Below are positions 3,697-28,699 of a stretch of 34,345 bases of DNA, in pieces. Source of the stretch: Mycobacteriales bacterium. Its GTDB lineage: Bacteria; Actinomycetota; Actinomycetes; Mycobacteriales; SCTD01. A program made the position numbers and the translations under genes. The stretch's first letter is position 1, and every line of letters begins with the position of its first letter. The stretch covers positions 1 through 34,345 of the forward strand of contig JBKJLP010000260.1 in assembly GCA_046596735.1 (NCBI GenBank), read 5' to 3'. The notes beneath the pieces were generated by a model, which had not been told where the DNA came from, searched no databases, and worked only from the letters and a program-made list of their open reading frames with translations.

Positions 3697-3724
3697 AACA
3701 CAGGACTGCAGGCCAGCGATTCCC
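3697..3724 (-). promoter_or_regulatory. Candidate SigH/SigR-dependent (autoregulated) promoter
   Basis: The minus strand reads GGGAATC-N17-TGTTG. GGGAAT is the complement of 3724-3719 and GTT is the complement of 3699-3697. This fits the GGAAT-N18/19-GTT type consensus reported for SigR/SigH promoters. It lies about 180 nt upstream of the 3515 ATG and about 45 nt upstream of the 3647 ATG. Confidence 0.5.
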
Positions 3725-5031: not shown

Positions 5032-5047
5032 GTGCTCGGGGGTGGGC

Positions 5048-5497: not shown

Positions 5498-6160
5498 TCA
5501 GGCGATCGGCTCCACCAGGTCCGGACCGTTGTTGCGGACATTGCCCACCGCCGACGAGACCGGCCACGCTTGCAGGACCCCCGGCAGCGGCGCCAGCAGG
5601 ACGTCGTCGGGGTCCTCGACATCGGGCGCCAGCCACGTCGCCCAGGCCTCGCGCGGCACCAGGACCGGCGTGCGGTCATGGATATGCCCGAGCTCGTCCG
5701 ACGCCTCAGTGGTGAGCACCGTGCAGGTCCACAGTGAGCTGCCCTCAGGTGACTTCCAGACCTCGTACAACCCCGCCATCGCCAGTGGCGCGTTGTCCGT
5801 CGATGACAGGAAGTACGGCTGCTTGCCGCCATCGTGGCGCTGCCACTCGTAGTAGCCGTCGGCAGGGACCAGGCAGCGCCGGCGCGCGTAGGCCGCCCGG
5901 AAGGCGGGCTTGTCGCGCACGGTCTCTCGCCGAGCGTTGATGAACCGGGCCCCGGTTTTGGGGTCCTTGGCCCACGACGGCACCAGCCCCCACCGGACCA
6001 CCCGAAGCTGTCGCTGCTCCTCGCGCTGCAGCACCACGTAGACCGGGTCCGTCGGCGCCACGTTGTACGACGCGGGCAGAGCCTCCTCCACAGGGGCGTC
6101 CACCTCGAAGTGGGCGGACAGATCGTCTGCGGGACGAGAGCTGGCGTAGCGGCCGCACAC
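5498..6160 (-). CDS. SOS response-associated peptidase (SRAP; YedK/HMCES family abasic-site processing protein)
   Basis: The N-terminal MCGRY supplies the catalytic Cys2. YNVAPT, VRWGLVPSW, INARRET and GYYEW are the canonical SRAP motifs. Confidence 0.92.
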   Translation of the reverse strand: MCGRYASSRPADDLSAHFEVDAPVEEALPASYNVAPTDPVYVVLQREEQRQLRVVRWGLVPSWAKDPKTGARFINARRETVRDKPAFRAAYARRRCLVPADGYYEWQRHDGGKQPYFLSSTDNAPLAMAGLYEVWKSPEGSSLWTCTVLTTEASDELGHIHDRTPVLVPREAWATWLAPDVEDPDDVLLAPLPGVLQAWPVSSAVGNVRNNGPDLVEPIA

Positions 6161-6192: not shown

Positions 6193-6233
6193 CACCCTGC
6201 TGAGCCTAGGCGGGCCTTAGGCTCAGCAGGGTG
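6193..6233. repeat. Perfect 16-bp inverted repeat (hairpin/operator candidate) in a divergent intergenic region
   Basis: CACCCTGCTGAGCCTA (6193-6208) and TAGGCTCAGCAGGGTG (6218-6233) are exact reverse complements separated by the 9-nt spacer GGCGGGCCT. The element sits between the SRAP gene start (6160, -) and the GNAT ORF. Its right arm covers the first candidate GTG (6231). Confidence 0.85.
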
Positions 6234-7376
6234 CCGTCCCCTGCCGTGCGTCAGAGCTGTGTGCTCACCGGTGACGACGCCCTTCGCGGGCTCACCGAGA
6301 TCGAGGGTCTCCTTGAGGAGACCGGCGCGCCGATCACCGCACGGGTGCCGTGGCTGCGCGCCTGGGCCGGCGCGACGCAAGACCTTCCGGTGCTCGTCGT
6401 GGCGCACGCCGGTGGCAGGCCGACGGCCGCTGCACCCCTAGCCATGCGGCGTCGCGGGCCGGTGAGGGAGGTCCTGGCCTGGGGCCATCAGGACAGCGAT
6501 CGGGTCTCTCTTCCGGCTCGGACGCCGGCCGATGCTGGCGAGCTGGCCCGGGCCCTCCACGCCTATCTGCGCGGCCTGCGCCGACCCTGGACCCTGCGCG
6601 TGGAGCAGTTGCCGGTGGCCGATGGTGCCGGCCTCGCCTTGGCCCGCACGCTTCCCCGGGCCGCACTGAGCGAGGGCGACGTCAGCCCACGGACGGTTTT
6701 CGGTCCCGAGCGCACGCTCGCCCAGCACCTGAGCCGCAACGGTCGCCGCAGTGCCCTCCAGGCGGGCAACCGGCTGGCCGCGGCCTCGCTCGACCCGCAG
6801 GTCGGCTACTGGCGTAGCCCCGACGACGTCCGGCGGCACCTGGCTGACCTGGAAGGGTTGCGCCGTCGACGCGACCATGCGCTCGGCCGACCCAGCGCCA
6901 TGGACGACCCCGCCCGGCGGGAGTTCTACCGCACCGTCGTCCTCGGCGCTGCCGCTACCGGCGAGCTCGAGCTGGCCACCCTGCACGTCGACGGGCGCCT
7001 GGCGGCGTACGACGTCTGCTTCATCGACCACGGCTGGCTCCGGCTGTGGGACGGCCGGATCGAACCGGACCTGGCCCACTACGGCGTGGGCAAGCTGCTG
7101 GACGCTCGGGTACTGGAGCGAGCACTCGCCGATCCCACTCTGCTGGGTGTGGACTGGATGCGCGGCGACGAGCCGTACAAAAGTCGCTCGGCCAACGAAC
7201 GGGTCGCGCACGAACACCTGCACGCGTCGTCGTCCGCCGCGGCGTGGGCGGTCTCGTTCGGCGGTCGCGCGCTGCGCAGCGCCGCCCGCGCCCGAGCCGC
7301 GGAGCATCCTGCCGTCCTGGAGCACTGGCGCAAAGCGAAGACTCGGGCTCTGGAGTTGCGCCGCGGGGCTGGCTGA
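6231..7376 (+). CDS. GNAT-fold acyl/aminoacyl transferase, CelD/BioF2/FemAB-like (Acetyltransf_6 type)
   Basis: The C-terminal half contains HVDGRLAAYDVCF..., VGKLLD... and VDWMRGDEPYKSR, typical of CelD/BcsL-like GNAT proteins found in polysaccharide loci. The start is uncertain. GTG 6231 lies inside the inverted repeat, and in-frame GTGs at 6246 and 6261 are alternatives. Confidence 0.65.
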   Translation: MPSPAVRQSCVLTGDDALRGLTEIEGLLEETGAPITARVPWLRAWAGATQDLPVLVVAHAGGRPTAAAPLAMRRRGPVREVLAWGHQDSDRVSLPARTPADAGELARALHAYLRGLRRPWTLRVEQLPVADGAGLALARTLPRAALSEGDVSPRTVFGPERTLAQHLSRNGRRSALQAGNRLAAASLDPQVGYWRSPDDVRRHLADLEGLRRRRDHALGRPSAMDDPARREFYRTVVLGAAATGELELATLHVDGRLAAYDVCFIDHGWLRLWDGRIEPDLAHYGVGKLLDARVLERALADPTLLGVDWMRGDEPYKSRSANERVAHEHLHASSSAAAWAVSFGGRALRSAARARAAEHPAVLEHWRKAKTRALELRRGAG

Positions 7377-7389
7377 GCGACAGCTCAGC
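7372..7389. terminator. Short hairpin spanning both stop codons of a convergent gene pair
   Basis: GCTGAGC-GACA-GCTCAGC is a 7-bp perfect stem with a 4-nt loop. The left arm contains the TGA of the GNAT gene (7374-7376). The right arm contains the complement of the TGA of the deacetylase gene (7385-7387). There is no U-tract, so terminator function is uncertain. Confidence 0.3.
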
Positions 7390-8146
7390 GCACCGATCCG
7401 AGTAGCGAGTGCGCCGCCCGCCGGACCGGCCCGAGCCGACCCACGGAGGCGTAGCCGACAGACCAGGCGCGGCTGAGCTTGAGCCGGAAAGTGCGGTCGG
7501 TCTCCGTGGCATTGACGTCCGTACGCCGGATGGCGTAGCGCCCGTGCGGGTCGTGCACCGCAAAGCCCGCCTCGTAGCCGGCGTCGCGCACGGCGTCGCG
7601 AGCACGCGCATCGTGGTGGCCTGAGGCATAAGCGAACGCGCGCGGCGGCGCTCCGAGCAGCTCACCGAGCGCGTCCCGGGTGGCGTGGACCTGCTGCTGT
7701 AGCGCCGCCGGGGACAGCCCGGGCAACAACGTGTGATCCCAACCGTGCGCCTCGACGCCGACACCGCCGGCGACGAGCTCCCGCAGGCCCTGCGCCCCGA
7801 GCAGTGGTTCGTCAGGCATCTCCGGCATCCACCCGGATCGCCCGTCCAGCCGACCGGGGAGTGCGAACAGCGTCGCGGGCAAGCTGCGCTGGCGCAGTTC
7901 GGGCAGAGCCAGCTCCAAGGTGTTGACGTAGCCATCATCGATCGTCAGCAGCAGGCTCTTGCGCTTCCATGAGCCGCGGCCCAGCCCGGTGAGGTAATCG
8001 TCCATCGTGAGCGGCGCGAAACCCAGCCGTAGGACGGTGTCGAGTTGTCGCCCGAAATCGTCGGGGGCGACAAACAGCCGGTGCGGGTCGGTGGCGTCGT
8101 CGCGGGCCCCGAAGGCGTGGTACATCAAGATCAGCGGTCGGTTCAC
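7385..8146 (-). CDS. Polysaccharide deacetylase (NodB homology domain)
   Basis: Motifs are LLLTIDDGY (the TFDDG-type motif 1), ATLFAL and EAHGWDHT (the H-x3-H motif 2). The GTG start at 8146 forms a GTGA overlap with the stop of the upstream co-polymerase gene. The longer ORF to 8386 would run through that gene. Confidence 0.85.
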   Translation of the reverse strand: MNRPLILMYHAFGARDDATDPHRLFVAPDDFGRQLDTVLRLGFAPLTMDDYLTGLGRGSWKRKSLLLTIDDGYVNTLELALPELRQRSLPATLFALPGRLDGRSGWMPEMPDEPLLGAQGLRELVAGGVGVEAHGWDHTLLPGLSPAALQQQVHATRDALGELLGAPPRAFAYASGHHDARARDAVRDAGYEAGFAVHDPHGRYAIRRTDVNATETDRTFRLKLSRAWSVGYASVGRLGPVRRAAHSLLGSVR

Positions 8147-9552
8147 AGGTCGTTCTCCACGAGCGACGGCCGTTGATAGCCCGACGCGCGCGAGGGCGCC
8201 CTCCCGCCATTGAGGACTGTCCCCACCAAACGCAGTTGTAGCGCCGCCACGACCGAGACGGCGTCGGTGACCTCCTGCAGCGCGGTCCCCACGGCCACGA
8301 CGAGCAGCACCCCCTGTGCCATCGCCACGACGCTCCGCGCGTCCTCGTCCTGCAGCGGGGGGCAGTCCAGCACGACGAGGTCGCACTGCTCACGGAGGCG
8401 CTCGAGCAGGTCAGGCAGCATCCGACGCATCTCGGCGACGTCGGCCGGTCGGACGTCGGTGGGCAGCACCCGCACCCCGTCCACCGGACCCTCGTGCAAA
8501 CTGCGCTCGAGCTGACCGGTGCCGCGCAACGCCAGGGCCATCGCGGGAGGCTCGAACGGCCCCAGCGCCAGCGTGAGCCCAGCCCGCTGCGTGTCAGCGT
8601 CCAGCAAGACCACCCGCTTACCAGCGCGGGCCGCGGCGGCGCCCAGCGCGGTCGACAGGGTCGTCTTGCCGTTGCTGGTCGCCGGGGAGGTCACGGCAAG
8701 CGACCGCAGCGGAGCCTCGAGGTCAGCCCGCTCGAGCTGCAGCCAGGCGGCCCGCACGGCTGGCCCCAGCAGCGGATCGCTGACTTCCACGGTCTCGCCC
8801 CGGGACAACTGGGACGAGGCCGGCAACCGGCCGAGCACCGGCACTCCAGCGGCCCGCTCGAGGTCCGCTGGAGTGAGGATGCGCGGGCGCAGGCGCTCAC
8901 GGGTCAAGGCGACGGCCACGCCGGTCAGCACGGCCGCGAGGAGACCGGCGATCTCCAGCAGGCGGCGCGGCGGCCCGGACGGTGAGTCGGACGGGAGGGC
9001 GCGAGCCACAATTTGCGCCTCGAGCAACTCGTCGGCACGGGCGTAAACCAGCGCGGCATCACCGAAGGCATTAGCCACTTGGGCAGCCTGGCGGCTCGAC
9101 CCCAACGTGACGGTGACCGTCAGGTTGGCGGTGTCGGTCTGGATGGACGCGTCCGACGAGCGCGACAGTGTGCTGTCGTCCACGCCCGTCGCGGCGGTGA
9201 CGCGGGCCAGGGTGCTGGGCGCGGCCAAGAACGCGACGTAACGGGGCAGGACCAGCCGAATGACGTCGGCACCGACCGACGACCCCAACCGCGGCGTAAA
9301 CGACAGCGTCGTCTCGGCGGTGTAGACGGCCGGCCGGGACTCGGCGTAGACGGCGACACCCAGGAAGACCGGCACGGACACCAGCAGCAGCAGGGCCAGG
9401 TTGCGTCGAAGGCCCGCGGCCACCGCGGCCAAGCCATGCTCCTCGGTGCTCAGCTCGACTCCGGCGGGGCTCAGGGACAGGGCGCTCCGGCGGAGACGCA
9501 GGCGGAGCATATCGCCCGAGGGGGCTCGCGGCAGCGGGTTCGCGCGAGACAC
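8143..9552 (-). CDS. Polysaccharide co-polymerase (Wzz domain) fused to a BY-kinase-like P-loop ATPase
   Basis: Two TM segments (LALLLLVSVPVFLGVAVYA and LLEIAGLLAAVLTGVAVAL) flank a periplasmic-type domain. The C-terminal domain has Walker A-like SPATSNGKTT, Walker A' VVLLDADTQR and Walker B DLVVLDCPP. The start is uncertain. I favour GTG 9552 (GGAG 10 nt upstream). ATG 9510 and GTG 9591 are in frame, but the codons in 9553-9591 are A/T-ending and look non-coding. Confidence 0.8.
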   Translation of the reverse strand: MSRANPLPRAPSGDMLRLRLRRSALSLSPAGVELSTEEHGLAAVAAGLRRNLALLLLVSVPVFLGVAVYAESRPAVYTAETTLSFTPRLGSSVGADVIRLVLPRYVAFLAAPSTLARVTAATGVDDSTLSRSSDASIQTDTANLTVTVTLGSSRQAAQVANAFGDAALVYARADELLEAQIVARALPSDSPSGPPRRLLEIAGLLAAVLTGVAVALTRERLRPRILTPADLERAAGVPVLGRLPASSQLSRGETVEVSDPLLGPAVRAAWLQLERADLEAPLRSLAVTSPATSNGKTTLSTALGAAAARAGKRVVLLDADTQRAGLTLALGPFEPPAMALALRGTGQLERSLHEGPVDGVRVLPTDVRPADVAEMRRMLPDLLERLREQCDLVVLDCPPLQDEDARSVVAMAQGVLLVVAVGTALQEVTDAVSVVAALQLRLVGTVLNGGRAPSRASGYQRPSLVENDL

Positions 9553-9655
9553 GGCATTCACGCTCCGTAAGGCACAATTACTCTCTGTCACCCGTTTGGG
9601 CCATCCAGCGGTGGGCTCAAACGACGAACCTCTCTATGTCAACCCGTTCACTCGG

Positions 9656-9745
9656 GGTCGTTCGACAAGGGCAAACCCGCCGCGAGGCGGGGACGCAAAG
9701 CCACGGGACTCCTGTTGGGAGTTAGCCGGGTCACCGAAGACGACC
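9656..9745 (+). promoter_or_regulatory. c-di-GMP-I (GEMM-I) riboswitch aptamer
   Basis: The RNA reads GGUCGUUCGACAAGGGCAAACC-CGCC-GCGA-GGCG-GGGACGCAAAGCCACGGGACUCCUGUUGGGAGUUAGCCGGGUCACCGAAGACGACC. The blocks GGCAAACC, a GNRA-capped stem, GGGACGCAAAGCC, and UAGCCGGGUCACCGAAG match the Vc2 aptamer as I remember it (..ACAGGGCAAACCAUUCGAAAGAGUGGGACGCAAAGCCUCCGG...GUAGCGGGGUUACCGAUGG). The outer stem pairs GGUCGU/UCG (9656-9664) with CGA/ACGACC (9735-9745). The element lies in the 5' leader of the + strand hydrolase gene. Confidence 0.78.
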
Positions 9746-9777
9746 GGTCCTGAGCCAGCCCTCTGGGAGCCAGGACC
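9746..9777 (+). promoter_or_regulatory. Candidate riboswitch expression platform (hairpin that sequesters the RBS)
   Basis: GGUCCUG (9746-9752) pairs perfectly with CAGGACC (9771-9777). An inner CCAG/CUGG pairing is also possible. The hairpin encloses the GGGAG Shine-Dalgarno (9765-9769) and ends 1 nt before the GTG start at 9778. Confidence 0.45.
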
Positions 9778-11136
9778 GTGACCGTCCGTCGCCAGCTTCG
9801 TCGTAGCCTGACAGTGCTCTCCCTCGCCACTGCCCTGCTCGGAACGGGAGCCGTCGTGGCCACCTCCGCCTCCGCCGCCACCCCGGCCGGTCGTCCGCAG
9901 GTCGGCGTGCAGTTCAAGGGCATGTGGTCGGACTACACCGACACCCAGCGCGCCGCTGTGCTCGACAAGATGGCCGCCGCGAAGCTGGACACGGTCCGCA
10001 TCGACGTCAGCTGGGCGATGCTCCAGCCGACCGGCCCGGACAGCTACGACGCGTGGGGCGTCGGGTTCGTCGACAAGGTCATCACGATGGCGAACAGCCG
10101 TGGACTGACCCCCCTGATCACGCTCTGGATGTCACCCTCATGGGCCAACGGCGGTCGCAGTGACCGCACCCTGCCGAACAACCCGGCGGACTACGCCCGG
10201 GCCGCCCAGTGGGCCGCTGCCAAGTGGGCCGGCAAGGTGGGCGCCTGGGAAGTCTGGAACGAGCCCAACAGCAACGACTTCATGGTCGGTGCGAGCCCCA
10301 CCGCCTACGCCAACCTGCTCAAGGCCGCGTACCCCGCCTTCAAGGCCGGCGACCCGAACGCCACCGTCGTCTCCGGCGGCACGATGTACGTCGACACCGA
10401 CTGGATCGCCAAGATGTACGCCGCCGGCGCTGGTGGCAGCTTCGACGCCATCGCCGTCCACCCCTACATGGGCGTCGCCGACCTGGCCCCCGAGACCGCC
10501 GATGACGGCACCCAGTGGACGCTGGCCCACGTCTCCGCACTGCACGACCTGATGGTCTCCAAGGGCGACGGTGCCAAGTCGATCTGGCTGACCGAAATGG
10601 GCTGGAGCACGCACGCCACCGCCGCGGGCGCCCCCAACTGGGAGCGCGGCGTCAGCGAGGCGGTCCAGGCCGACTTCACGGTCCGTTCGATCGCCTTCAC
10701 GGCCAGCAAGCTCCCGTGGGTCTCCCACATGTTCTTCTACACCGAGCGCGACCAGGTCGACAGCCACATCCAGGACAACAACTACGGCCTGCTGCGCCGC
10801 GACCTGAGCCCCAAGCCGGTCTACACGGCCCTCGCCGCCCACCTCGCTGGCAGCAGCACGACGGCCCCGGCTCCCGCACCGCTGCCGGTCATCCCGCCGG
10901 CCGCCCCGGTCAGCAGCACCACGACGACCACGACGGCCACGACGGCTCCCGCCGAGCAGGTCGCCACTCCTGAGGTGCGCCGCACCCTGCGGATCAGCAC
11001 CAAGCCGCGCCGGGCGCAGGCCAAGCTCGCCGCGATCCAAGCCGCGACAGTCACCGCGCCGGTCGTCGGTCCGGCCTTGCGCCGCTACCCGCTGTCGTTC
11101 ATCGGCCCGCTCGCCCTCGGCGCGGTTCGGGTCTGA
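9778..11136 (+). CDS. Secreted clan GH-A (TIM-barrel) glycoside hydrolase, PslG/GH39- or GH5-like
   Basis: The signal peptide is MTVRRQLRRSLTVLSLATALLGTGAVVATSASA. Motifs are VRIDVSWAMLQP, WEVWNEPN (acid/base Glu) and WLTEMGWST (nucleophile Glu). The C terminus carries a Pro/Thr-rich linker (SSTTTTTTATTAP) and a basic/hydrophobic tail. The exact GH family cannot be decided by eye. Confidence 0.75.
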   Translation: MTVRRQLRRSLTVLSLATALLGTGAVVATSASAATPAGRPQVGVQFKGMWSDYTDTQRAAVLDKMAAAKLDTVRIDVSWAMLQPTGPDSYDAWGVGFVDKVITMANSRGLTPLITLWMSPSWANGGRSDRTLPNNPADYARAAQWAAAKWAGKVGAWEVWNEPNSNDFMVGASPTAYANLLKAAYPAFKAGDPNATVVSGGTMYVDTDWIAKMYAAGAGGSFDAIAVHPYMGVADLAPETADDGTQWTLAHVSALHDLMVSKGDGAKSIWLTEMGWSTHATAAGAPNWERGVSEAVQADFTVRSIAFTASKLPWVSHMFFYTERDQVDSHIQDNNYGLLRRDLSPKPVYTALAAHLAGSSTTAPAPAPLPVIPPAAPVSSTTTTTTATTAPAEQVATPEVRRTLRISTKPRRAQAKLAAIQAATVTAPVVGPALRRYPLSFIGPLALGAVRV

Positions 11137-11140
11137 CCGG

Positions 11141-12607
11141 TCAGGTCGACTCCAGGGCCGCGGCCGCCGGGTCAGGTCGGACAACGCTCAGTGCCAGCGC
11201 CAGCCCGACGAGGAACCACAGCAACGTCGCGATGAGGGCGCTCAGCAAGGTCACGTCGAACAGGCCCTGACCGACGAACGTCGCCAGCGCCGCCCCGACT
11301 CCGGCAGCCAGGCTCCCGTCGACCTCGTTGAGTCGCCGCGCGGCACGGAGCGCGGCGAAGCCCAGCGACAGGGTGAAGCCGAAGACCAGCACCACACCCG
11401 GTCCGCCAAGCTCGGCAGCCACGTGCAGCGGAAGGTCGTGCGCGTGCAACGCTGAGACGGTCCGCGCCCGCGAGGCGAGCCGGGACGAGACGTAAGGGAA
11501 CGCCCCCGGCCCTTGACCGAGCCACGGCGAGTCACGGAACTCGCGCAGGGCCTCGCCCCAGATGGTCGTGCGGTCGTCGTACGGGTTCTTGTCGGCACTG
11601 CCGATGCTCGTGAACCGCTCGCCCACGATCTGCAGCTCGCTGGCTGCCGGGGTGAGCGTCGCCGCGACGACAAGGGCGAGCAGCAATGGGGGGGCCAGCC
11701 GCACCAGCGCCCGGCGTGCGCGGCGCTGCAGAATCAGCAGTGCCAGGAACCCGGCGATGCAGCCGATCCACGCACCGCGCGAGAGCGACAGGCCCACTTG
11801 GAGCAGCGCCAGCGCACCCACAGCCCCCGCGGCCCAGCGCCCCCGGGCCGTGCGCGCGCCTAACCCCGCACCGATGGCCAGCAGCAGCACCGCCGCCGCA
11901 AATGAGCCGGCCTGATTGTGCTCGGTGAACAAGCCCTTGGAACCGCTGACGTTGGTCGCCCCCGCAGATGCGGACACCGTTCCCGAGACGACGAGCCCGA
12001 GCGCGCAGACGGCGCCGCCCGCGGCGAGCGCGGCCGCCACGAGGCGGCGCACGTCGGTGATGCGCCGGCACGCGCCGACGACGGCTAACGCGAGGAGCAG
12101 CCCGACGATGACGCTGGCGTCGCGCCGCAGGGCGATCTGCAGCTCAGGCGCCCGCGAGGTCGACAGCAGCATCTGCAGGATCAAGCCCATGGCCCACCAG
12201 GCGGGCGGCGGGAACGGCAGCGGACCCACGCCGCGGTTGAGCCGAGTCAGGACCACCACGCCCGCAGCGAGCAGCGCGGCGGCCTGTACCAGCGAAAGCA
12301 GACCGCCCGCGACCGAGTGATCGCCGGCGGCGATGCTCAGCGGCACCGCCGCCACCGCGATCACCGGCTGGCGCAGCGCCACGGCAACGAGGATCACCAG
12401 CGCCGGCAGCGCGACGACCAGGATCGGGCTACCTGCCGTGCCCACGGCACCCAGAAGCACGCCGAGCCCGGCTGAGACGAGCAGGATGAGCAGCACCAAC
12501 AGCGGTGTGGGGAGTCGGCTGACCGCGGCGACGAGCCGGGAACTCCCCCACTCGACCTCGCGCTCATCCGCGGCGATCACCGGCGGGCGGAAGGGCGTCG
12601 AGGTCAT
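11141..12607 (-). CDS. O-antigen ligase/polymerase-like membrane protein (Wzy_C domain)
   Basis: It is polytopic with more than 10 hydrophobic segments. It has the characteristic LSLSRGAWIG loop motif. The ATGA junction at 12604-12607 couples it to the upstream glycosyltransferase gene. Confidence 0.75.
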   Translation of the reverse strand: MTSTPFRPPVIAADEREVEWGSSRLVAAVSRLPTPLLVLLILLVSAGLGVLLGAVGTAGSPILVVALPALVILVAVALRQPVIAVAAVPLSIAAGDHSVAGGLLSLVQAAALLAAGVVVLTRLNRGVGPLPFPPPAWWAMGLILQMLLSTSRAPELQIALRRDASVIVGLLLALAVVGACRRITDVRRLVAAALAAGGAVCALGLVVSGTVSASAGATNVSGSKGLFTEHNQAGSFAAAVLLLAIGAGLGARTARGRWAAGAVGALALLQVGLSLSRGAWIGCIAGFLALLILQRRARRALVRLAPPLLLALVVAATLTPAASELQIVGERFTSIGSADKNPYDDRTTIWGEALREFRDSPWLGQGPGAFPYVSSRLASRARTVSALHAHDLPLHVAAELGGPGVVLVFGFTLSLGFAALRAARRLNEVDGSLAAGVGAALATFVGQGLFDVTLLSALIATLLWFLVGLALALSVVRPDPAAAALEST

Positions 12608-14715: not shown

Positions 14716-16211
14716 GGCCGGCGGGCCAGGGTCCGCACCAGCCGCAGTTGCTCCGGGAACAGCCACCGGGCCAGCAGCACCCAGGTCGCCAGGTAGACCA
14801 GCCCTCCGACAGCGCATTCGACCAGCACCGGCAGGTGCATCAGCAGCATCGCCGCGATCAGCGGCGGCAGCGCGAGCAGCGGTAGCCGCAGTGCGCGATC
14901 GACCCGCAGGTAGCCCATCGTGGGGCCGGCCAGCAGGATCGCCAGGAACCCCTCAGCGGCGTAGGACACGGTCGTCGCTATGGCCGCCCCGGGGCCCCCG
15001 TACAGCGGGATCACGACGAGGTTGAGCGCGATGTTGAGCCCAGCGCCGCCAAGTGTCGACAGCAGCACAGCTCGGTTGCGCTTGCGTGCGGTCAGCGCCT
15101 CGCTGGCCAGATAACTCAGGGCGAACGCGAGCGGGGCAGCGGCCAGCAGCCGCAGGGTGAGCGCGCTCTGCCCGGAGTATTCGGCGCCGAACAGCAGCTG
15201 CAGGAGCCGGGGACCTTCGATGATCAACAGTGCGCCGTACGGGACGAAGACCGTCGCGACTGCCGACAGCCCCTGCTCGGCCAGCGCCACGGCCTCGCTG
15301 TCCTTGAGCGCCCGACTCATCGCCGGGAAGATCGCCCGGGTGACCGCCCAGTTGACGAACAGCACCGTTTCAAGCAACCGGTAGGCGACGGCGTAGGACG
15401 CGAGTTCCTCGTCGCCGCGGATGAGGCCGAGCAGCACCGCGTCGAGGCGGAACAGCGCCATCGCGACAAGCGTGTCGATGCCCAGGACGAACGACGACCG
15501 CCACATCAGCCGCAGTTGCGGCCCGGTGACCGCCGACCAGTCCGGCCGAATCTGCAGGATGCGCAGCGCCCGCCAGGTCAGCACCTGCCCGAACACACTC
15601 GCGACGAGGTAGACGACCGCCACCGAGACGAGCCCCGAACCGCTGCCGAGCAGGGCGATGGCGAGCACGGCGGTCGAGAGCCGCTGGGCAATGAGCGCCA
15701 CGGACGTCCGGCCGCGCTTCTCCAAAGCGCCAGCCGCAGACCGCCCGGCGTCGCCGTACGTGTCGAGAACGGTCGCGAGCAGGATCAGCAGCAGGGCGAC
15801 GGAGGCCTCGGTCGAAGGGCGACTCAGTGCCCCCAGCCCGCCGCCCAGCAGCAGGACCGGCACGGCGAGGATGGAGCGCAGCGCAAGGGTCTGCGCCAGC
15901 GCAGCCCCGAGGTCGTTGGGGTCCGCGCTCCCCCGGCGGATGAGGACGCTGTCAAAGCCCCAGGCGGGCAGCGTGGCCAGCAGCATGCTGAAGGCCAGGG
16001 CGTACGAGAACGCGCCGAATCCGGCGGCTCCTAGGCTGCGAGCCGCCACGATGGTGAAGACCAGGGTGGCGACCTTGCCGGCCAGTTCGGCGCCCGCGAC
16101 GATGGCCACGTTGCGCGCCGCTCGTGACCCTGCGTCCCCCTCAGGGACACTGGGTGACGAGTCGCCGGGAGAACGCGTCTTCCGGGCCACGACATGATGT
16201 TCCCACGACAT
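14712..16211 (-). CDS. Polysaccharide flippase (Wzx, MOP superfamily)
   Basis: The roughly 500 aa protein has 12 or more TM helices. The N-terminal NVAIVAGAELAGKVATLVFTIVAARSLGAAGFGAFSYA is typical of Wzx/PST family members. I take the start at ATG 16211. The ORF extension to 16352 would overlap the divergent kinase gene. Confidence 0.75.
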   Translation of the reverse strand: MSWEHHVVARKTRSPGDSSPSVPEGDAGSRAARNVAIVAGAELAGKVATLVFTIVAARSLGAAGFGAFSYALAFSMLLATLPAWGFDSVLIRRGSADPNDLGAALAQTLALRSILAVPVLLLGGGLGALSRPSTEASVALLLILLATVLDTYGDAGRSAAGALEKRGRTSVALIAQRLSTAVLAIALLGSGSGLVSVAVVYLVASVFGQVLTWRALRILQIRPDWSAVTGPQLRLMWRSSFVLGIDTLVAMALFRLDAVLLGLIRGDEELASYAVAYRLLETVLFVNWAVTRAIFPAMSRALKDSEAVALAEQGLSAVATVFVPYGALLIIEGPRLLQLLFGAEYSGQSALTLRLLAAAPLAFALSYLASEALTARKRNRAVLLSTLGGAGLNIALNLVVIPLYGGPGAAIATTVSYAAEGFLAILLAGPTMGYLRVDRALRLPLLALPPLIAAMLLMHLPVLVECAVGGLVYLATWVLLARWLFPEQLRLVRTLARRP

Positions 16212-16248
16212 CCGCTGAACCCGCTGCGCAACGGAGAGGTGCCCCGAC

Positions 16249-17094
16249 GTGTCCCACCAGGCGCGGGCTGCCCTGGCGGCGGCGCTCGCAGACGCCACAG
16301 CAGCGGCCGGTGAGCCGCTACACCCCCAAAGCCGCGGGGCGTGGCAGGCCAATCAGGTGGCGATCGGCGCGAGCGTGGTGGCCTACCTCGGCGCAAACGA
16401 GCAGTCTCGCGCCCGGATCCGCTCCGAACGGTTGCGGTTGGCGTGGGCCGCCGCTGCCGACGTCCCGGTGCCCGCCGTACGCGCTCAGGCTGACGACGAC
16501 GCGTGGCTGCTGGTGCAGCGGGTCCCCGACGACGAGGTCTACGGACCGGCGTACGTCGATGCGGCCGCCGCCGCAGCCACGGCCTTGCGCACGGCTGGCG
16601 ATCCGCCGCCTGACGCCGGGCTGGCCCGATCCCGGCGGGCGCGCCGCAGCGACCTGGTGCCCAGGCTGGCCCGCGCCGCGCTCAGCCCGTTGCGGATCGC
16701 TGAATTTCGCGCGCTGCGCGCCGAAGTGGCCGCTCTGCCCGAGGATCGATTCGTCACCAGCCACGGGGATTTTCACCTCGGCAACGTCCTGTCGGACACG
16801 GGCCGCCGCGTATCCGTCGTCGACTTCGAGTTCCTCGGCCGAGGTCACCCCGCCGACGACCTCATGTCACTGTGGGTGGACCTGGTAGACCCGGCTGACC
16901 GCCAGCGGCTGTTGCGCCTGGCCTGCGACACCGTGGACGTCCCGCGTGCCGAGGTGCTGCTCTTCGCGCACTGGCTGGCCGTACGCCACCTCGCCGAGCT
17001 GGTGACCGGGGTGCCTCTGCTGCGCCGTGATCGACCGGAAGTGCGGGTGGCGGTCACGCGGGTCACTGAGGCGCGCGCGCTTCGCGGCGGGTGA
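16249..17094 (+). CDS. Phosphotransferase-family kinase (APH/choline-kinase fold)
   Basis: SHGDFHLGNVL (HGD-x4-N catalytic loop) is followed by VVDFEF (the metal-binding Asp). The size is about 280 aa. The substrate is unknown. Confidence 0.7.
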   Translation: MSHQARAALAAALADATAAAGEPLHPQSRGAWQANQVAIGASVVAYLGANEQSRARIRSERLRLAWAAAADVPVPAVRAQADDDAWLLVQRVPDDEVYGPAYVDAAAAAATALRTAGDPPPDAGLARSRRARRSDLVPRLARAALSPLRIAEFRALRAEVAALPEDRFVTSHGDFHLGNVLSDTGRRVSVVDFEFLGRGHPADDLMSLWVDLVDPADRQRLLRLACDTVDVPRAEVLLFAHWLAVRHLAELVTGVPLLRRDRPEVRVAVTRVTEARALRGG

Positions 17095-18265
17095 TGACGC
17101 GGCGGATCCGGGCCGGTACGCGCTTGGTCACCGCCCGCGCCTGGCGCCAGAACGGCGCCGGATCCTGCGCCGACCAGACCGGGCGGACAGCCCCCCGGCC
17201 GGCGAGCATCGTGGCCGTTAGGTCGGCGATCAAGGACGGCGTGCGTTGGCGCGCAGCCCGGCGAAGGTCGAGCCCCAAGGCTTGGAAGTGCGCCGACGAC
17301 GTGGCGATCGTGGGCCAGGCGTGCTCACCCAAGGCGTCGCACAGCCAGGTGTCGCACAGCGACATGCCGGCAGCTTCAGCCAGCGCCATCGTCCCGTACG
17401 GACGCGGGTTGGCATCGATGAGGTGCAACCGGCCGCCTGTGTCAGCCAGGAATTCCAGTTGCACCAACCCCCACCACTGGAGTTGGTCCAGCAGGCGGTC
17501 AACGGCCGCCACCAGGTCGGGCGGCGCCGGTTCCAGCGCCCCCCGTACGCAGTTGCCCGCAGGCACGGGGTAGACCCGGCTGGCCCGCTGGTGTGAGCGA
17601 GCGAGCACGACCCCCGACCGGCTGCGGACCACCACATGGGCGACGAGCCAGCCGTCGATGGGCTCCTGGTAGATGGCCTGGGCGCCAGCCGCCCTGACGT
17701 CGTCCGCCCGGCGCAACGCGGCAACGCCGTCCTGCGTGACGACCGTCTCGACGCGGTCCGCGGCGTCGACCACGCCGTGCACCCTGGGCTTGACGACCGC
17801 GCGACCGGCGAAACTCGGCACGTGGCCCGCCGCGGCGGCCTCCGTGAGGGGACTGTTCAGCCCGCACGCACCGGCGGCATCGCTGAGCAGCATTTTGTCC
17901 AAGATGCTCACCACGCGGGCGTGCGCTGGATAGGGCAAGGTGATCCCAGGAAGCAGGTCCCGGTGCTCGGACAGCAGCAGCAGCTCGGCGTCACCGCAGG
18001 GGACCACGACCCTCGCGCCGGTGCGCGCCGCCACGTCGCGGACGTCCCCGAGCCATTCCGTGGTGGTGACCGAATTGATGTGACGCACCACGCCGCTGTC
18101 GCGACAGGCCCGCGACACCGTCGCGATGGACTGCCCGCCCGGTGCACCGATCACGACCCGCCACCCGGCCGCGGCCAGCGATCGAGCGGTCGCGAGCGCG
18201 GTGACTCCGGATCCGTCTTCCACCAGCAGGACCGTGTGCCCGGAGCGGACGGGCGGCGAGGTCAC
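17063..18265 (-). CDS. ATP-grasp domain protein (carboxylate-amine ligase-like)
   Basis: It has an N-terminal Rossmann-like VLLVEDGSGVTALATARSLAAAGWRVVIGAP. The central and C-terminal parts (AVVKPR..., YQEPIDG, VQLEFL...LHLIDANPRPYG) are typical of uncharacterised ATP-grasp ligases. GTG 18265 forms a GTGA overlap with the GT4 stop. Its 3' end overlaps the kinase gene 3' end by 32 nt. Confidence 0.7.
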   Translation of the reverse strand: MTSPPVRSGHTVLLVEDGSGVTALATARSLAAAGWRVVIGAPGGQSIATVSRACRDSGVVRHINSVTTTEWLGDVRDVAARTGARVVVPCGDAELLLLSEHRDLLPGITLPYPAHARVVSILDKMLLSDAAGACGLNSPLTEAAAAGHVPSFAGRAVVKPRVHGVVDAADRVETVVTQDGVAALRRADDVRAAGAQAIYQEPIDGWLVAHVVVRSRSGVVLARSHQRASRVYPVPAGNCVRGALEPAPPDLVAAVDRLLDQLQWWGLVQLEFLADTGGRLHLIDANPRPYGTMALAEAAGMSLCDTWLCDALGEHAWPTIATSSAHFQALGLDLRRAARQRTPSLIADLTATMLAGRGAVRPVWSAQDPAPFWRQARAVTKRVPARIRRVITRREARAPQ

Positions 18266-19380
18266 TCCCGATTGGACCACGCCTGGTGCAACGCGAACAC
18301 GCGGTCCTGCAACCGAATAAGGAAACTGTCGACGGAGAACTCCTCGGCGCGGGCCCGCAACGCGGCCACGTCGTAGTCCTGCGGGCGGAAGATGCGCAGC
18401 GCCTGCACCAGCGAGGCGACCGTTTGCTCGGCGAAGAAGTCGCCCGTGACGCCCGCGACCACGGTCTCGGTGGCGCCGCCGCGGGCCAGCGCAAGCACCG
18501 GCGTGCCACTGGCCATCGCTTCGAGCGGTGTCAGGCCGAAGTCCTCGTCCGCCGGGAAGATCATGGCCCGCGCCTGCCCGTACTCCCGCGCCACCTCAGC
18601 GTCAGAGACAGCTCCGGTGAACACGGTGCGCGGGCCGGCCAGACTCTCCAGCCGCGGCCGCTCGGGGCCATCCCCCACGACCCGCAGCGGCAGGTCCAGC
18701 TCGGCGCAGGCGCGCACAGCCAACGCGACCGACTTGTACGGGATGAGGCGTGACACGACGACGAAGTGGTCGCCGCGCGCTTGGTCGGTGGTGAAGCGAC
18801 GGATGTCGACGGGCGGGTGCAGCACCTCGCTGTCGCGGCGGTAGTACTTCTCGATCCGGCGGGCGACGACGGCAGAGTTGGCGAACAGGTGATCGGGGCG
18901 TTGGGCGGCCGCGAGATCCCATTGACGCATGCGCCCGGCGAGTACGGGCAGGGCTAGCCGGACGAGCGGATCGAGCCGACCGAAGCCCGGGTTGGCCAGG
19001 TAGCGCTGGTAATCGCTCCAGTAGTAGCGGGTCGGTGTGTGGATGTAGGCCAGGTGCAGAGTGTCCGGTCCCGTCAGGACGCCTTTGGCCTCGCAGTGGT
19101 CGGAGGTCAGCACGACGTCGTAGCCGGACAGGTCGAACGATTCGAAGGCGCGTCGGCGCAGCAGCGGGAAAAGTTGATGGCGGTGCGAGAGCGGCCACGA
19201 CTGCAGAAACGACGTACGCACGTCGCGGGAGGCAAAGTCCGGCAACGCACCTCGGTCGTACACCGAGGTGTAGATCGGCGCGCCGGGAAAGGCTTGGCTG
19301 AACGCGTCCAGGACCCGCTCGCTGCCACCCTGATTCGTCAGCCAGGGGTGGACGAGGGCCACCTTGAGTTCGGTGCTCAC
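18262..19380 (-). CDS. Glycosyltransferase family 4 (GT-B)
   Basis: Motifs are KVALVHPWLTNQGGSERV at the N terminus and EDFGLTPLEAMASGTPVLA (EX7E). The GTGA overlap at 19377-19380 couples it to the upstream deacetylase gene. Confidence 0.85.
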   Translation of the reverse strand: MSTELKVALVHPWLTNQGGSERVLDAFSQAFPGAPIYTSVYDRGALPDFASRDVRTSFLQSWPLSHRHQLFPLLRRRAFESFDLSGYDVVLTSDHCEAKGVLTGPDTLHLAYIHTPTRYYWSDYQRYLANPGFGRLDPLVRLALPVLAGRMRQWDLAAAQRPDHLFANSAVVARRIEKYYRRDSEVLHPPVDIRRFTTDQARGDHFVVVSRLIPYKSVALAVRACAELDLPLRVVGDGPERPRLESLAGPRTVFTGAVSDAEVAREYGQARAMIFPADEDFGLTPLEAMASGTPVLALARGGATETVVAGVTGDFFAEQTVASLVQALRIFRPQDYDVAALRARAEEFSVDSFLIRLQDRVFALHQAWSNRE

Positions 19381-20183
19381 CCGGCCAGCAGCTCAGAAAC
19401 GCTGGTCGGCTCCAGACCGCGGGCGCGCAACCTGGCAAAGACCCGGGGAAGGGCGTTTACGGTCTCCGGGTGGCCCAGGTGCAGCTGCACGATCGACCCT
19501 GGACGACTTCCGCTGCCCACGATCCGCACGATCACTCCCGCCCCCGGGTCTGACCAATCGCGCGGATCGACATCCCATCCGATGACCTTGTCGTAGCCAG
19601 CCTTCGCGGCGAGGTGAAGCAGGATAGGCACCGGTAGGTCGACCTCGGGCGCCAACAAGCCCATGCCAGGTCCGCCGGTCTGCTTCACCAGGACGTCGCG
19701 GCAGCGCTCGATCTCGGTTCTCATCACGGACGGCGTGATCCGACTGAAGTCCGGGTGGCTGAAGGAGTGATTGCCCAGTTCGTGGCCGGCTGCCGTGATC
19801 GCTTTGGCGACCGTGGGCTGGTCGAGCAACCAGGTACCGATGGCGAAGACGCTGGCCGTGACCTGCTCCCGCTTCAGCACCCGCAGCGCGGCGTCGGTCG
19901 TCCTGCGGTCCCCGTCGCCGTGAAACATGATTCCGACTTTGTTGACCGTGCGCGAGCCCTTCGGGATGAACGCCGCGCGGTCGGCAGCAGCTGCCGCGGC
20001 GGTCGGGTCGCTGAAAGCCTCGGCCGCGGTGACCGGCCGTCGCGGCCCAGCGGGGACCGGGGCGTCAGGTTGAGGGGCGGGCGCTGTCGCGGACTGACGC
20101 GCCGCGCACGCCGCGACCGAGCCAGCCACGACCGCCGCACCCGCGCCGCGCAGCAGCGCGCGTCGGCTGAGACCAGCGCTCAT
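19377..20183 (-). CDS. Exported polysaccharide deacetylase (NodB domain) with Tat-like/lipoprotein-like signal
   Basis: The signal region is MSAGLSRRALLRGAGAAVVAGSVAACA (twin-Arg followed by AAC). The NodB motif 2 is GNHSFSHPDF. Motif 1 is atypical (IMFHGDGD rather than TFDDG). The ATGA overlap at 20180-20183 couples it to the priming transferase gene. Confidence 0.8.
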   Translation of the reverse strand: MSAGLSRRALLRGAGAAVVAGSVAACAARQSATAPAPQPDAPVPAGPRRPVTAAEAFSDPTAAAAAADRAAFIPKGSRTVNKVGIMFHGDGDRRTTDAALRVLKREQVTASVFAIGTWLLDQPTVAKAITAAGHELGNHSFSHPDFSRITPSVMRTEIERCRDVLVKQTGGPGMGLLAPEVDLPVPILLHLAAKAGYDKVIGWDVDPRDWSDPGAGVIVRIVGSGSRPGSIVQLHLGHPETVNALPRVFARLRARGLEPTSVSELLAG

Positions 20184-21676
20184 GCACCTGCCCGCTTCAA
20201 CACCTGGCCTAGCGTACGGATCATGATCTTCAGATCAGCCCACAAAGACCAGTGTTCGATGTAAAAGTTGTCAAACCGTGCACGGTCCTCGATAGAGGTG
20301 TCGCCGCGCAATCCATGCACCTGGGCCCAGCCCGTCAGCCCGCTCGGCACCCGGTGTCGGGCGGTGTAGCGCGGGAAGGTCTGGGTGAAACTGTCGACGA
20401 AGAAGGGTCGCTCGGGGCGCGGCCCGACCAACGTCATGTCGCCGCGCAGGATGTTCCACAGTTGGGGCAGCTCGTCCAGGCTGCTGGCCCGGAGGGTGCG
20501 ACCGACGATGCCGATGCCCGACGGGGCGACGTTCCACCGGGTCTGCGACTCAGTCTCGGTGGCCGGCTTGATCGAACGGAACTTCAACACCTGGAAGTTG
20601 CGTCCGTCCAGACCCACCCGCTCCTGGCGAAACAGGATGCCGGGGCCTCCCTCGATCCGCACGGCGAGCGCGCACGCGGCCAGCACGGGAGTCAGCAGCA
20701 GTAGCGCCACGGCGGACAGCACGACGTCCATGACCCGCTTCAGCGCCCAGGTCGGCGACTGAAAGGCCGGCCGCTTCAGGCGGAACAGCGGGATGCCCCA
20801 GACGTTTTCGACGTCGCGGCTGCCGTGTTGCAGCTCAAACAGTCGCGGCACGAAGAAGATCTCGACCTCGAGCCGGTCGCAGGTGCGGATGATGTCGACC
20901 ATGTCGGACTCCGGCAGAGAGCCGAAGGCCACGATGACGTCACGCACCCCGAACTCGACGACGACCTTCGCGAGGTCCGCCGCTCCACCCAGCACGGGGA
21001 CGAGCCGGGCGTCCGCGTCGAGCAGGGGGTTGTCGTCGAGGAAGCCGATGGGCTTGAGCCCGTATTCACGGTGTGACACCAGCGTCGAGGTGAGCAAGCC
21101 ACCGACGCGGCCGGCACCCAGCACGAGAGTCGGGTGAGCGACCCACCCCTTGGCCCGGAAGTAACGCACCACCTGGTAGCCGATCAGCCGACCGACGAGC
21201 ACGAGCAGGGCACCCACGAGTGCCGCGGCGAGCAGACTGGCCTCGAACTCAGCGCCACCGCCACGGAGGAGCAGGCCGCCACAGACCACGATCGCCGCGG
21301 CGGACAGCGTGCGGCCGAACAGGCTGGGCATGTCATCCAGCAGCGAGAGGGTGAGTCGGCTGCGATAAAAACCGGCGGCTGCGAAGAGAACCGCTTGAAG
21401 CAGGACGAAAGCCACCTCGAGCCGCAGTGGGGCCGCCGACAGGCGCAGGGCCACGATGAGTGCGCCTGCGTCCAGCGCAGCGAGGAACGGGCGAACGCCG
21501 TAGCGCAAGATCGTGCGGTCGGGGATCCACGGGCGCAGTCGTTTCAGCCCCTGGGTGTCGTCCGTACGACTGCGGCCATCCAGGCCTAGGGTCGGGGCAG
21601 ACCGGCGGGGCGCCAACTGACGATCGGGTAGCGGCAGAAACGGACGCCGATTCGGATCCAGGGCCTTATGCGCCAT
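20180..21676 (-). CDS. Polyprenyl-phosphate glycosyl-1-phosphate transferase (WbaP/CpsE/EpsL-type priming enzyme)
   Basis: N-terminal TM helices are followed by a central Rossmann-like domain. The C-terminal bacterial sugar transferase domain has LKRVMDVVLSAVALLLLTP, FRQERVG, VLKFRS, DELPQLWNILRGDMTLVGPRPERP and the tail KIMIRTLGQVL. Confidence 0.9.
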   Translation of the reverse strand: MAHKALDPNRRPFLPLPDRQLAPRRSAPTLGLDGRSRTDDTQGLKRLRPWIPDRTILRYGVRPFLAALDAGALIVALRLSAAPLRLEVAFVLLQAVLFAAAGFYRSRLTLSLLDDMPSLFGRTLSAAAIVVCGGLLLRGGGAEFEASLLAAALVGALLVLVGRLIGYQVVRYFRAKGWVAHPTLVLGAGRVGGLLTSTLVSHREYGLKPIGFLDDNPLLDADARLVPVLGGAADLAKVVVEFGVRDVIVAFGSLPESDMVDIIRTCDRLEVEIFFVPRLFELQHGSRDVENVWGIPLFRLKRPAFQSPTWALKRVMDVVLSAVALLLLTPVLAACALAVRIEGGPGILFRQERVGLDGRNFQVLKFRSIKPATETESQTRWNVAPSGIGIVGRTLRASSLDELPQLWNILRGDMTLVGPRPERPFFVDSFTQTFPRYTARHRVPSGLTGWAQVHGLRGDTSIEDRARFDNFYIEHWSLWADLKIMIRTLGQVLKRAGA

Positions 21677-24092: not shown

Positions 24093-24158
24093 GGCTCAGC
24101 TCTGCGTCGTCGTTCGTCGTCGGCGAGCAACCCCCACAGCGCCGTCATGGCCGGCCAG

Positions 24159-28695: not shown

Positions 28696-28699
28696 CCGA

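Follow-up and report, generated by a model that had tools for sequence, protein, structure and literature searches.

The stretch of DNA analysed here (the window; 34,345 nt, contig JBKJLP010000260.1 of an uncultured soil actinobacterium of the Mycobacteriales, assembly GCA_046596735.1) carries at positions 6231-21676 a block of twelve adjacent genes that very probably constitutes a functional Wzx/Wzy polysaccharide locus. All coordinates given below are window positions. As the window is about 70% G+C, long spurious open reading frames (ORFs) are abundant; real genes were selected by frame analysis of the G+C content at third codon positions (GC3), and domains were assigned by means of Pfam and NCBIfam scans. 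The start codons were refined by comparison with orthologues, several of the longest-ORF starts lying too far upstream. An initial annotation, made from the sequence alone, had described twelve consecutive genes with the domains listed below as a complete Wzx/Wzy pathway whose tailoring set is out of the ordinary. The genes and domains were recovered by the GC3 frames, the domain scans and a structure model of the ATP-grasp protein, and the completeness of the pathway was corroborated by the domain content; with regard to the tailoring set, no curated NCBIfam equivalog was found for the ATP-grasp or the GNAT protein. The annotation could not match the predicted chemistry to any characterised actinobacterial exopolysaccharide (EPS), and no characterised actinobacterial pathway corresponding to the locus was found in the literature searched. 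The features of the block are the following:

6231-7376, plus strand: FemX-like tandem-GNAT acyl/aminoacyl transferase (Acetyltransf_6 PF13480, 76.9 bits)
7385-8146, minus strand: NodB/CE4 deacetylase, the first of two (NodB1; PF01522, 74.7 bits)
8143-9591, minus strand: Wzz-like co-polymerase with two transmembrane segments, fused to a bacterial tyrosine kinase (BY-kinase)-type P-loop domain (NCBIfam matches below cut-offs, transmembrane profile)
9661-9739, plus strand: riboswitch aptamer of the cyclic di-GMP (c-di-GMP)-I clan (RF03167, 70.7 bits)
9746-9777, plus strand: hairpin, putative expression platform (minimum free energy fold)
9778-11136, plus strand: secreted PslG-like endoglycosidase of clan GH-A (Pfam Cellulase, 48.4 bits)
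11141-12607, minus strand: Wzy-type polymerase (Wzy_C PF04932, 77.6 bits; about 11 transmembrane segments)
12604-14715, minus strand: two-domain GT4-GT2 glycosyltransferase (PF00534 and PF00535)
14712-16109, minus strand, start possibly as far as 16211: Wzx flippase (Polysacc_synt PF01943, 89.4 bits; multiple transmembrane segments)
16249-17094, plus strand: cytoplasmic small-molecule or sugar kinase of the aminoglycoside phosphotransferase (APH) fold (PF01636, 70 bits)
17063-18265, minus strand: ATP-grasp ligase (Pfam match below cut-off, structure model)
18262-19380, minus strand: GT4 glycosyltransferase (PF00534, 76.5 bits)
19377-20183, minus strand: NodB/CE4 deacetylase, the second of two (NodB2; PF01522, 73.1 bits)
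20180-21676, minus strand: large polyprenyl-phosphate hexose-1-phosphate transferase (PGT), the primer enzyme (Bac_transf PF02397, 200 bits)

With the refined starts, the minus-strand genes form three operons with 4-nt stop/start overlaps, each of which converges on a single plus-strand gene: PGT-NodB2-GT4-ATP-grasp on the APH-fold kinase gene, Wzx-GT4/GT2-Wzy on the hydrolase gene, and Wzz/BY-kinase-NodB1 on the GNAT gene. Wzx/Wzy polysaccharide loci are common and the presence of one is in itself no surprise.

Among the enzymes of the core pathway, the PGT passes the curated model TIGR03025 (372.8 bits, cut-off 295.55) and scores 344.9 bits against WcaJ and 234.9 bits against WbaP, both values lying below the respective cut-offs and placing it nearer to WcaJ (UDP-glucose type). 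The single-domain GT4 enzyme is the most conserved product of the block (93% and 87% identity to its orthologues), and for the GT4-GT2 protein a start giving 703 aa agrees with the orthologues and with a 4-nt overlap with the Wzx stop. The Wzz/BY-kinase-like protein reached 60.6 bits with TIGR01007 (cut-off 108), and its Wzz-type matches to TIGR01006 and TIGR03007 are likewise below cut-off. Its Wzz-like part shows transmembrane segments at residues ~65-83 and ~211-229 separated by a loop of ~130 aa, and the BY-kinase-like domain has the Walker A (SPATSNGKTT), A' (VVLLDAD) and B (LVVLDCPP) motifs.

The secreted hydrolase matches PslG in the PDB (4zn2/5bx9, E 2e-24; for 4zn2, E 2.3e-24 over residues 43-368) and has an N-terminal signal peptide ending in ASA. 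Its WNEPN and TEMGWS motifs align with WNEPN and TEWGWS of PslG; these motifs carry the catalytic Glu pair, and the enzyme keeps both catalytic glutamates. The gene is preceded by a 187-bp divergent spacer in which an Rfam scan detected, on the sense strand and 38 nt upstream of the hydrolase start, the riboswitch aptamer (E 5e-15; its 70.7 bits exceed the gathering score, which is 59). Both orthologous contigs, each represented by a pair of overlapping loci (L088/L081 and L089/L083), have the aptamer at the matching position, and it is nearly invariant among the orthologues while the surrounding spacer diverges. As regards the c-di-GMP-I (GEMM-I) riboswitches of clan CL00126, the window RNA is similar in being a full-length aptamer above the gathering score and in its location in the leader of a surface-type gene, and it differs in that the best-scoring model is the c-di-GMP-I-GGC variant, RF03167. 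The 5' leaders of environment and surface genes are the typical location of the c-di-GMP-I class (PMC7266159). At the three well-conserved columns in which it departs from the RF03167 consensus, the window RNA has G/A/A. The variant is defined by G for A after GACGC, at a ligand-contacting position; here the window reads GACGCAAAG against GACGCGAAg in the consensus. We take G/A/A to be the nucleotides of the parent c-di-GMP-I class as in Vc2, and the variant column was mapped to the binding site by Vc2 numbering on the same assumption. Based on this agreement with the ordinary class, c-di-GMP is the expected ligand. A metagenome scan with a generic aptamer pattern returned at least 120 loci; none of those listed encodes block proteins, and the scan is uninformative on the distribution of the riboswitch-hydrolase pair.

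A GGGAG Shine-Dalgarno sequence (9765-9769) lies within the hairpin at 9746-9777, which reaches up to the GTG start of the hydrolase gene. The GGTCC/GGACC stem of the hairpin and the GGAG are kept in the orthologues, and no intrinsic terminator was found in the hydrolase leader, whose control is probably translational.

Among the explanations that differ from an EPS locus, the one that survives best is that the product is a secondary cell-wall glycopolymer (teichuronic-acid-like or arabinogalactan-like) covalently anchored to the wall, and not a released or matrix EPS. Many wall-linked glycopolymers are made by Actinobacteria, the Wzy_C family includes ligases too, and the GT2 and GT4 domains of the block weakly match TuaG and TuaC. 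However, every Tua match falls far below cut-off, and Pfam scans revealed neither a LytR-CpsA-Psr (LCP) ligase nor an ATP-binding cassette (ABC) exporter in the block, whereas three of its features are characteristic of EPS loci for a matrix or capsule, namely the Wzz/BY-kinase, the PslG-like hydrolase and the c-di-GMP riboswitch. A wall polymer is thus considered unlikely, and we are moderately confident that the product is an EPS of matrix or capsule type that is influenced by c-di-GMP.

The origin of the block was addressed through its flanks, whose boundary and reference genes are:

2617-2901, minus strand: rshA (94-aa zf-HC2-type protein, HxxxCxxC)
2898-3647, minus strand: sigH (TIGR02947, 356 bits)
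5498-6160, minus strand: SOS-response-associated peptidase (SRAP), left boundary gene (PF02586, 258 bits)
21811-23130, plus strand: aroA, right boundary (PF00275, 347 bits)
23127-24092, plus strand: rsgA, right boundary (PF03193, 153 bits)

The initial annotation had placed the block between sigH and aroA-rsgA; aroA-rsgA lies directly to the right, but the direct left neighbour is SRAP, and four genes (those encoding IdeR, an alpha/beta hydrolase, a DksA-like protein and SRAP) stand between sigH-rshA and the block. For the synteny comparison, one genome per species was scanned with aroA and the window proteins were mapped onto the 80 loci returned. SRAP lies ~100 bp from aroA in ~45 mycobacterial loci, with sigH 2.5-8 kb upstream, in agreement with the closeness of sigH and aroA that the annotation had stated for Mycobacterium tuberculosis; based on the synteny table, the SRAP of the window corresponds to the mycobacterial gene next to aroA. 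SRAP also adjoins aroA directly in L002 and L004, which are among the next-nearest metagenome-assembled genomes (MAGs; aroA 69-76% identical). Other relatives have different genes at this junction: a LIV-type ABC transporter with binding protein and permease/ATPase in L005, L007 and L047 (at ~5.5-10 kb of the locus), a sigma/anti-sigma pair (fusion) and DoxX in L009 (at 6.9-9.9 kb), and a GMC oxidoreductase in L032 (at 8.5-10.1 kb). The SRAP-aroA interval is conserved and its junction is a recurrent variable point.

The closest relatives were reached via homologues of the ATP-grasp and GNAT proteins, and two of them have long contigs (GCA_038232675.1 and ERZ25039498 contig_38409). Both carry all twelve genes in unchanged order and with the same neighbours on both sides, rshA-sigH-ideR-hydrolase-(methyltransferase)-dksA-SRAP to the left and aroA-rsgA-(DUF2087)-AurF-TetR-ABC to the right; the identities to the window are 80% and 79% for aroA, 91% and 84% for rsgA, and 95% and 90% for AurF. 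Fragments of the block were also found on several shorter contigs. Since the two closest long-contig relatives share the block and its flanks, the block is a clade trait and not a strain-accessory element. Two small genes present in both close relatives (L081/L083, L088/L089) are missing from the window: one for a DUF2087 protein, which in the relatives separates rsgA from the AurF-like gene (24093-24158 in the window), and one for a Methyltransf_11 protein, located there between the genes for the alpha/beta hydrolase and the DksA-like protein (~5038-5047).

Recent acquisition by horizontal transfer, with the block as an accessory island placed between SRAP and aroA, would agree with the direct contact of these genes in L002, L004 and the ~45 mycobacterial loci, and with the varying cargo of the junction in the other relatives (L005, L007, L047, L009, L032). 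The attributes of a mobile island were not found at the block: there is no integrase, transposase, tRNA target or flanking direct repeat, and its composition matches that of the flanks (GC 0.715 vs 0.699; GC3 0.864 vs 0.866; codon-usage correlation r = 0.97, compared to 0.94 between the left and right flanks). A recent island was therefore rejected, as repeats, tRNA and compositional signal are all absent, and the presence of the block with both flanks in the two relatives speaks against it as well. Additional evidence comes from a distant Frankiales MAG (L085; aroA 56% identical) in which a different polysaccharide cluster adjoins aroA, comprising a PGT, a Wzx, two ATP-grasps, a thymidylate-kinase-like protein, a NodB and three GT4s. 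Its PGT occupies the same aroA-proximal place and is 57% identical to that of the window, a value at the level of the housekeeping genes (56-61%). Altogether, a recent island is quite unlikely. Of the lineage-specific insertion proposed in the initial annotation, the conservation of the interval elsewhere and the restriction of the block to a clade were upheld, but the two closest relatives share the block and marks of recent insertion are missing; close relatives with the same block and flanks, which the annotation had named as the outcome of a synteny comparison that would speak against an accessory block, were thus found in part. The most economical reading of these sequences is an old polysaccharide locus beside aroA that some lineages have remodelled and others have lost or replaced. 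In Frankiales-like Mycobacteriales, the SRAP-aroA junction is a variable point and possibly the site of such an old locus.

The genes of the block have not diverged uniformly. The ATP-grasp ligase (67% and 61% identity to its orthologues) and the APH-fold kinase (79% and 55%) are far more diverged than GT4 or the flanks, and the same holds for Wzx in one of the two comparisons (58%); such a pattern is expected if specificity-determining genes diversify. As a separate observation, a MAG-encoded GNAT (P0020, MEO6205203) is 93% identical to that of the window and an ATP-grasp protein (P0002, MEO6205052) apparently 64%; that both come from one assembly was deduced from their neighbouring accession numbers and, if so, divergence or exchange is far more rapid for the ATP-grasp gene than for the genes around it.

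Five enzymes make up the tailoring set, and they differ in their predicted location. NodB1, the GNAT, the APH-fold kinase and the ATP-grasp ligase have no transmembrane segment or signal, while NodB2, like the hydrolase, carries a signal peptide. NodB1 (253 aa, its start fixed by orthologues) is accordingly predicted to be cytoplasmic, and its motifs TIDD (Asp-Asp) and HGWDH (His-x(3-4)-His metal site) are invariant in five sequences, including those of L085 and L212. The N-terminus of NodB2 (SRRALLRGAG...VAAC) shows a twin-arginine signal followed by a lipobox Cys, Cys26 being invariant in orthologues, so that the protein looks like an exported lipoprotein of the twin-arginine translocation (Tat) pathway; its HSxSH (HSFSH), DPRDW and LHL motifs are invariant.

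The ATP-grasp ligase (400 aa), encoded by a gene that overlaps that of GT4 by 4 nt within one operon, had the weakest domain call of the block (Pfam, 23.8 bits against a cut-off of 29.1). Its AlphaFold model (predicted local distance difference test, pLDDT, 90.1) matches biotin carboxylase, PurK, L-amino-acid ligase and PylC in Foldseek with E ~1e-16, and the alignment of the family shows no variation at K124, K159, Q200, N286 and R288. At the level of the predicted structure, the identity of the 17063-18265 product is confirmed. The model of the GNAT (pLDDT 92.6), predicted to be a cytoplasmic protein, shows a tandem-GNAT fold. Its nearest PDB folds are FemX (1xf8; E 2.6e-12, TM-score 0.58), the peptide synthases Sbb17 (9wqx; E 4.6e-12) and Sba18, and the C-terminal domain of MprF, and in Foldseek the nearest solved folds are all aminoacyl-tRNA-dependent transferases. 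With regard to sequence, this protein matched PF13480 alone in Pfam and not FemAB, which places it outside the FemAB family as defined by sequence, and no meaningful sequence relative was found in the PDB for either the ATP-grasp or the GNAT protein.

Upstream of the GNAT gene, a perfect 13-bp inverted repeat (CCTGCTGAGCCTA ... TAGGCTCAGCAGG) occupies positions 6196-6230 and ends exactly at the GTG start. Palindromes are found at the matching place in L088 and L089 with other letters, still self-complementary (AGCGTAG/CTACGCT and CAGCCTA/TAGGCTG), and the repeat could be a leader hairpin or an operator.

The APH-fold kinase has the catalytic loop HGDFHLGN and the DFE motif and only four close homologues, every one of them from the same clade; a PDB sequence search returned for it a single 64-residue match, to APH(3'). 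This weak likeness raises the possibility that the kinase, the ATP-grasp ligase and the GNAT are in part passengers engaged, for example, in antibiotic modification or the synthesis of small metabolites, a notion that would also suit the separate transcription units of the three plus-strand genes and the position of APH (55-79%) and ATP-grasp (61-67%) as the most divergent genes of the block. Nevertheless, the kinase scores 36.6 bits with the resistance-family models (cut-off 205), all three genes hold their positions in every orthologous locus, the ATP-grasp gene shares an operon and a 4-nt overlap with GT4, and members of the ATP-grasp family are fused elsewhere to GT4 and Acetyltransf_6. 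Passengers are accordingly a very unlikely explanation.

The fusions were found in a profile search with the ATP-grasp protein, which returned 24,196 cluster representatives at E<=1e-3 and 3,590 at E<=1e-30. Among the top matches, the domain was fused to Acetyltransf_6, GT4, a thymidylate-kinase-like P-loop domain, a methyltransferase or a GINT1_N domain. The contig with the ATP-grasp-Acetyltransf_6 fusion (L212) encodes Wzz/BY-kinase, Wzy, the fusion protein, a kinase-like protein, NodB and beta-helix enzymes. Another ATP-grasp relative adjoins a GT2 with a NodB nearby, and a distant GNAT homologue stands beside a second Acetyltransf_6, GT2s, a methyltransferase and a NodB. NodB neighbours ATP-grasp relatives in L085, L212 and L213, and core pathway genes do so in L212 (Wzz/BY-kinase and Wzy) and L085 (PGT and Wzx). 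Based on these fusions and repeated gene contexts (four independent contexts and five fusions), NodB, ATP-grasp, a FemX-like GNAT and some kinase form a recurrent module; the combination that had been regarded as unusual is indeed uncharacterised but not unique, as unrelated contigs carry it too and it is also seen in the form of fused genes. No characterised EPS module of ATP-grasp, NodB and FemAB from Actinobacteria was found in the literature searched. It is conceivable, although doubtful, that a cytoplasmic NodB, an ATP-grasp ligase, a FemX-like GNAT and an interchangeable kinase (APH-fold here, thymidylate-kinase-like P-loop elsewhere) represent a widespread module that edits lipid-linked repeat units, in which the N-acetyl group would be removed and an amino acid or other carboxylate religated.

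For the locus as a whole, a pathway can be proposed on the basis of localisation, intact motifs, fold similarity and gene association. The PGT would place a hexose-1-phosphate on polyprenyl phosphate, and the three glycosyltransferase domains would assemble a repeat unit of about four sugars with at least one N-acetyl-hexosamine. At the cytoplasmic face, the signal-less NodB1 may strip an N-acetyl group off the lipid-linked unit; the FemX-like GNAT, the ATP-grasp ligase or both may then acylate the freed amine anew with an amino acid or other carboxylate, and the APH-fold kinase would phosphorylate a hydroxyl or a substituent. The unit would then be flipped by Wzx and polymerised by Wzy, with the chain length set by the Wzz/BY-kinase-like protein. 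Outside the membrane, the putative Tat lipoprotein NodB2 would partly de-N-acetylate the polymer, and the PslG-like endoglycosidase would trim or release it, in amounts set by c-di-GMP via the leader that sequesters the Shine-Dalgarno sequence. Cytoplasmic deacetylation followed by re-acylation, deacetylation after export and PslG-like trimming are, step by step, tentative proposals that at best approach an even chance; the resulting cationic, aminoacylated or phosphorylated chemistry of the polymer is plausible, judging from the gene content. That the Wzy_C protein is instead an O-oligosaccharyltransferase or ligase putting a short glycan on proteins or lipids, with no polymer made, is highly improbable: the Wzy_C domain is shared by PglL/PilO-type O-oligosaccharyltransferases and WaaL ligases and the protein received no polymerase-specific NCBIfam assignment, but a Wzz-type chain-length regulator with a fused BY-kinase domain would have no purpose without a polymer, nor would a secreted endoglycosidase, and the block has no second Wzy_C gene.

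Considering all the evidence, the block is probably, with some reservation, a vertically inherited, clade-level locus for a Wzx/Wzy-dependent heteropolysaccharide of the biofilm-matrix or capsule type that is tied to c-di-GMP signalling. Several observations weigh against this interpretation or parts of it. Motif 1 of NodB2 is FHGDGD rather than TFDD, a non-canonical form that is invariant in three orthologues. The Foldseek matches of the ATP-grasp model are generic (TM-score ~0.6, 13-17% identity), one ATP-grasp relative (L087) lies outside a glycan context, and the substrates of the ATP-grasp, APH-fold and GNAT enzymes are purely conjectural. The BY-kinase-like domain lacks the C-terminal Tyr cluster, having a single Tyr in its last 30 residues; this residue (SGYQRPSL) is kept in both orthologues, and the L212 counterpart has a YYY cluster. 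The fold of the whole hydrolase leader is not more stable than that of shuffled sequence (z = -0.86) and, for this reason, no ON or OFF mechanism was assigned. Finally, the block has no nucleotide-sugar genes that would point to the sugars, and all the sequences derive from MAGs, with no cultured organism.

Control of the block by SigH, which could be suspected from the proximity of sigH, was considered and dropped, since no site beyond chance level precedes the operons. A GGAAT-N19-GTTG motif on the minus strand (3696-3723), ~50 nt upstream of the sigH start, is compatible with autoregulation of sigH from a SigH/SigR-type promoter; a search for such promoters before the block operons gave this site and two matches probably due to chance, one of them inside aroA (22134-22159, minus strand). 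The count of three compares to 1.16 expected and was reached in 9 of 100 shuffles.

Regarding other genes of the window, an AurF-like di-iron oxygenase and a TetR regulator (24159-25852, minus strand) adjoin rsgA, and this pair is 90-95% identical in close relatives, compared to ~80% for aroA. Two fusions were detected on the minus strand: ORF 25897-28926 combines a branched-chain amino-acid permease with a LivG-like ATPase and, in an unusual arrangement, the single uninterrupted ORF 30972-33263 contains a major facilitator superfamily transporter domain (residues 90-446) and an ABC ATPase domain (543-685). Four sizeable ORFs with coding-type GC3 gave no Pfam or NCBIfam match, 835-2610 (plus strand), which has a clear N-terminal signal peptide, and 28700-30334, 30331-30975 and 33304-34299 (minus strand).

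The locus is a compact and conserved case in which an uncharacterised ATP-grasp family stands beside a cytoplasmic deacetylase and a FemX-like transferase. To our knowledge, few enzymes are known for the decoration of bacterial polysaccharides with amino acids or acyl groups, and the block offers a testable route to how such decorations are put on. If the proposal of an editing module is correct, N-aminoacylated or peptidyl and possibly phosphorylated exopolysaccharides would be made, in the present case from a locus gated by a c-di-GMP riboswitch. The locus is also an actinobacterial case of a c-di-GMP-type riboswitch connected with a matrix hydrolase of the PslG-like kind; in Actinobacteria, the control of matrix polysaccharides by c-di-GMP is, as far as we know, poorly mapped.

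Several known systems share parts of this gene set. The XrtA/PEP-CTERM EPS loci of Proteobacteria bring together a large PGT, a BY-kinase, a NodB deacetylase and a FemAB-like GNAT, and window proteins weakly match TIGR03006 (deacetylase), TIGR03007, TIGR03013 (PGT), TIGR03018 (tyrosine kinase) and TIGR03088, all well below cut-off. In contrast to those loci, the window shows no exosortase or PEP-CTERM context, and TIGR03019, which we take to be the FemAB-like model of these systems, was not matched. The systems for poly-N-acetylglucosamine (PNAG), Pel and galactosaminogalactan (PgaB, IcaB, PelA, Agd3) resemble the pathway proposed for the window in having an exported CE4-type deacetylase by which an N-acetylhexosamine-containing matrix polymer, once exported, loses part of its N-acetyl groups and is made cationic and adhesive, and NodB1 gave a weak N-terminal match to PgaB. 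These are synthase-dependent homopolymers, whereas the window has a Wzx/Wzy pathway with three glycosyltransferase domains and an extra cytoplasmic deacetylase.

Psl of Pseudomonas aeruginosa, whose production depends on c-di-GMP, is likewise made by a Wzx/Wzy-like EPS locus with its own secreted or periplasmic clan GH-A endoglycosidase (PslG). Psl is, however, neutral and its locus has no deacetylases, ATP-grasp, kinase or GNAT; the other genes are not orthologous, and an RNA aptamer is the regulatory element in the window.

The Caulobacter crescentus holdfast is a Wzx/Wzy adhesin whose properties are adjusted by the cytoplasmic deacetylase HfsH together with the FemX-like GNAT HfsK, which is a c-di-GMP effector (PMC5362036). 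By analogy, the holdfast is the best-studied counterpart of the block and a precedent for the pairing of deacetylase and FemX-like GNAT, the likeness extending to the Wzx/Wzy pathway, the large PGT, the cytoplasmic location of the NodB-type deacetylase and a c-di-GMP input. The PGT of the window matches the HfsE model NF050817 at 152.9 bits, far below the equivalog cut-off of 750, and is thus not an HfsE orthologue by this measure; neither genes for an Hfa anchor nor Wza-type genes for export across the outer membrane occur in the window, and the host is a Gram-positive-type actinobacterium. The holdfast system, in turn, is devoid of an ATP-grasp, an APH-fold kinase, a second, exported deacetylase and a PslG-like hydrolase, and in it c-di-GMP binds HfsK, while in the window the riboswitch is located on the hydrolase gene. 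What is new in the block is the riboswitch before the hydrolase gene, the PslG-like hydrolase itself and the different predicted compartments of the two NodB deacetylases.

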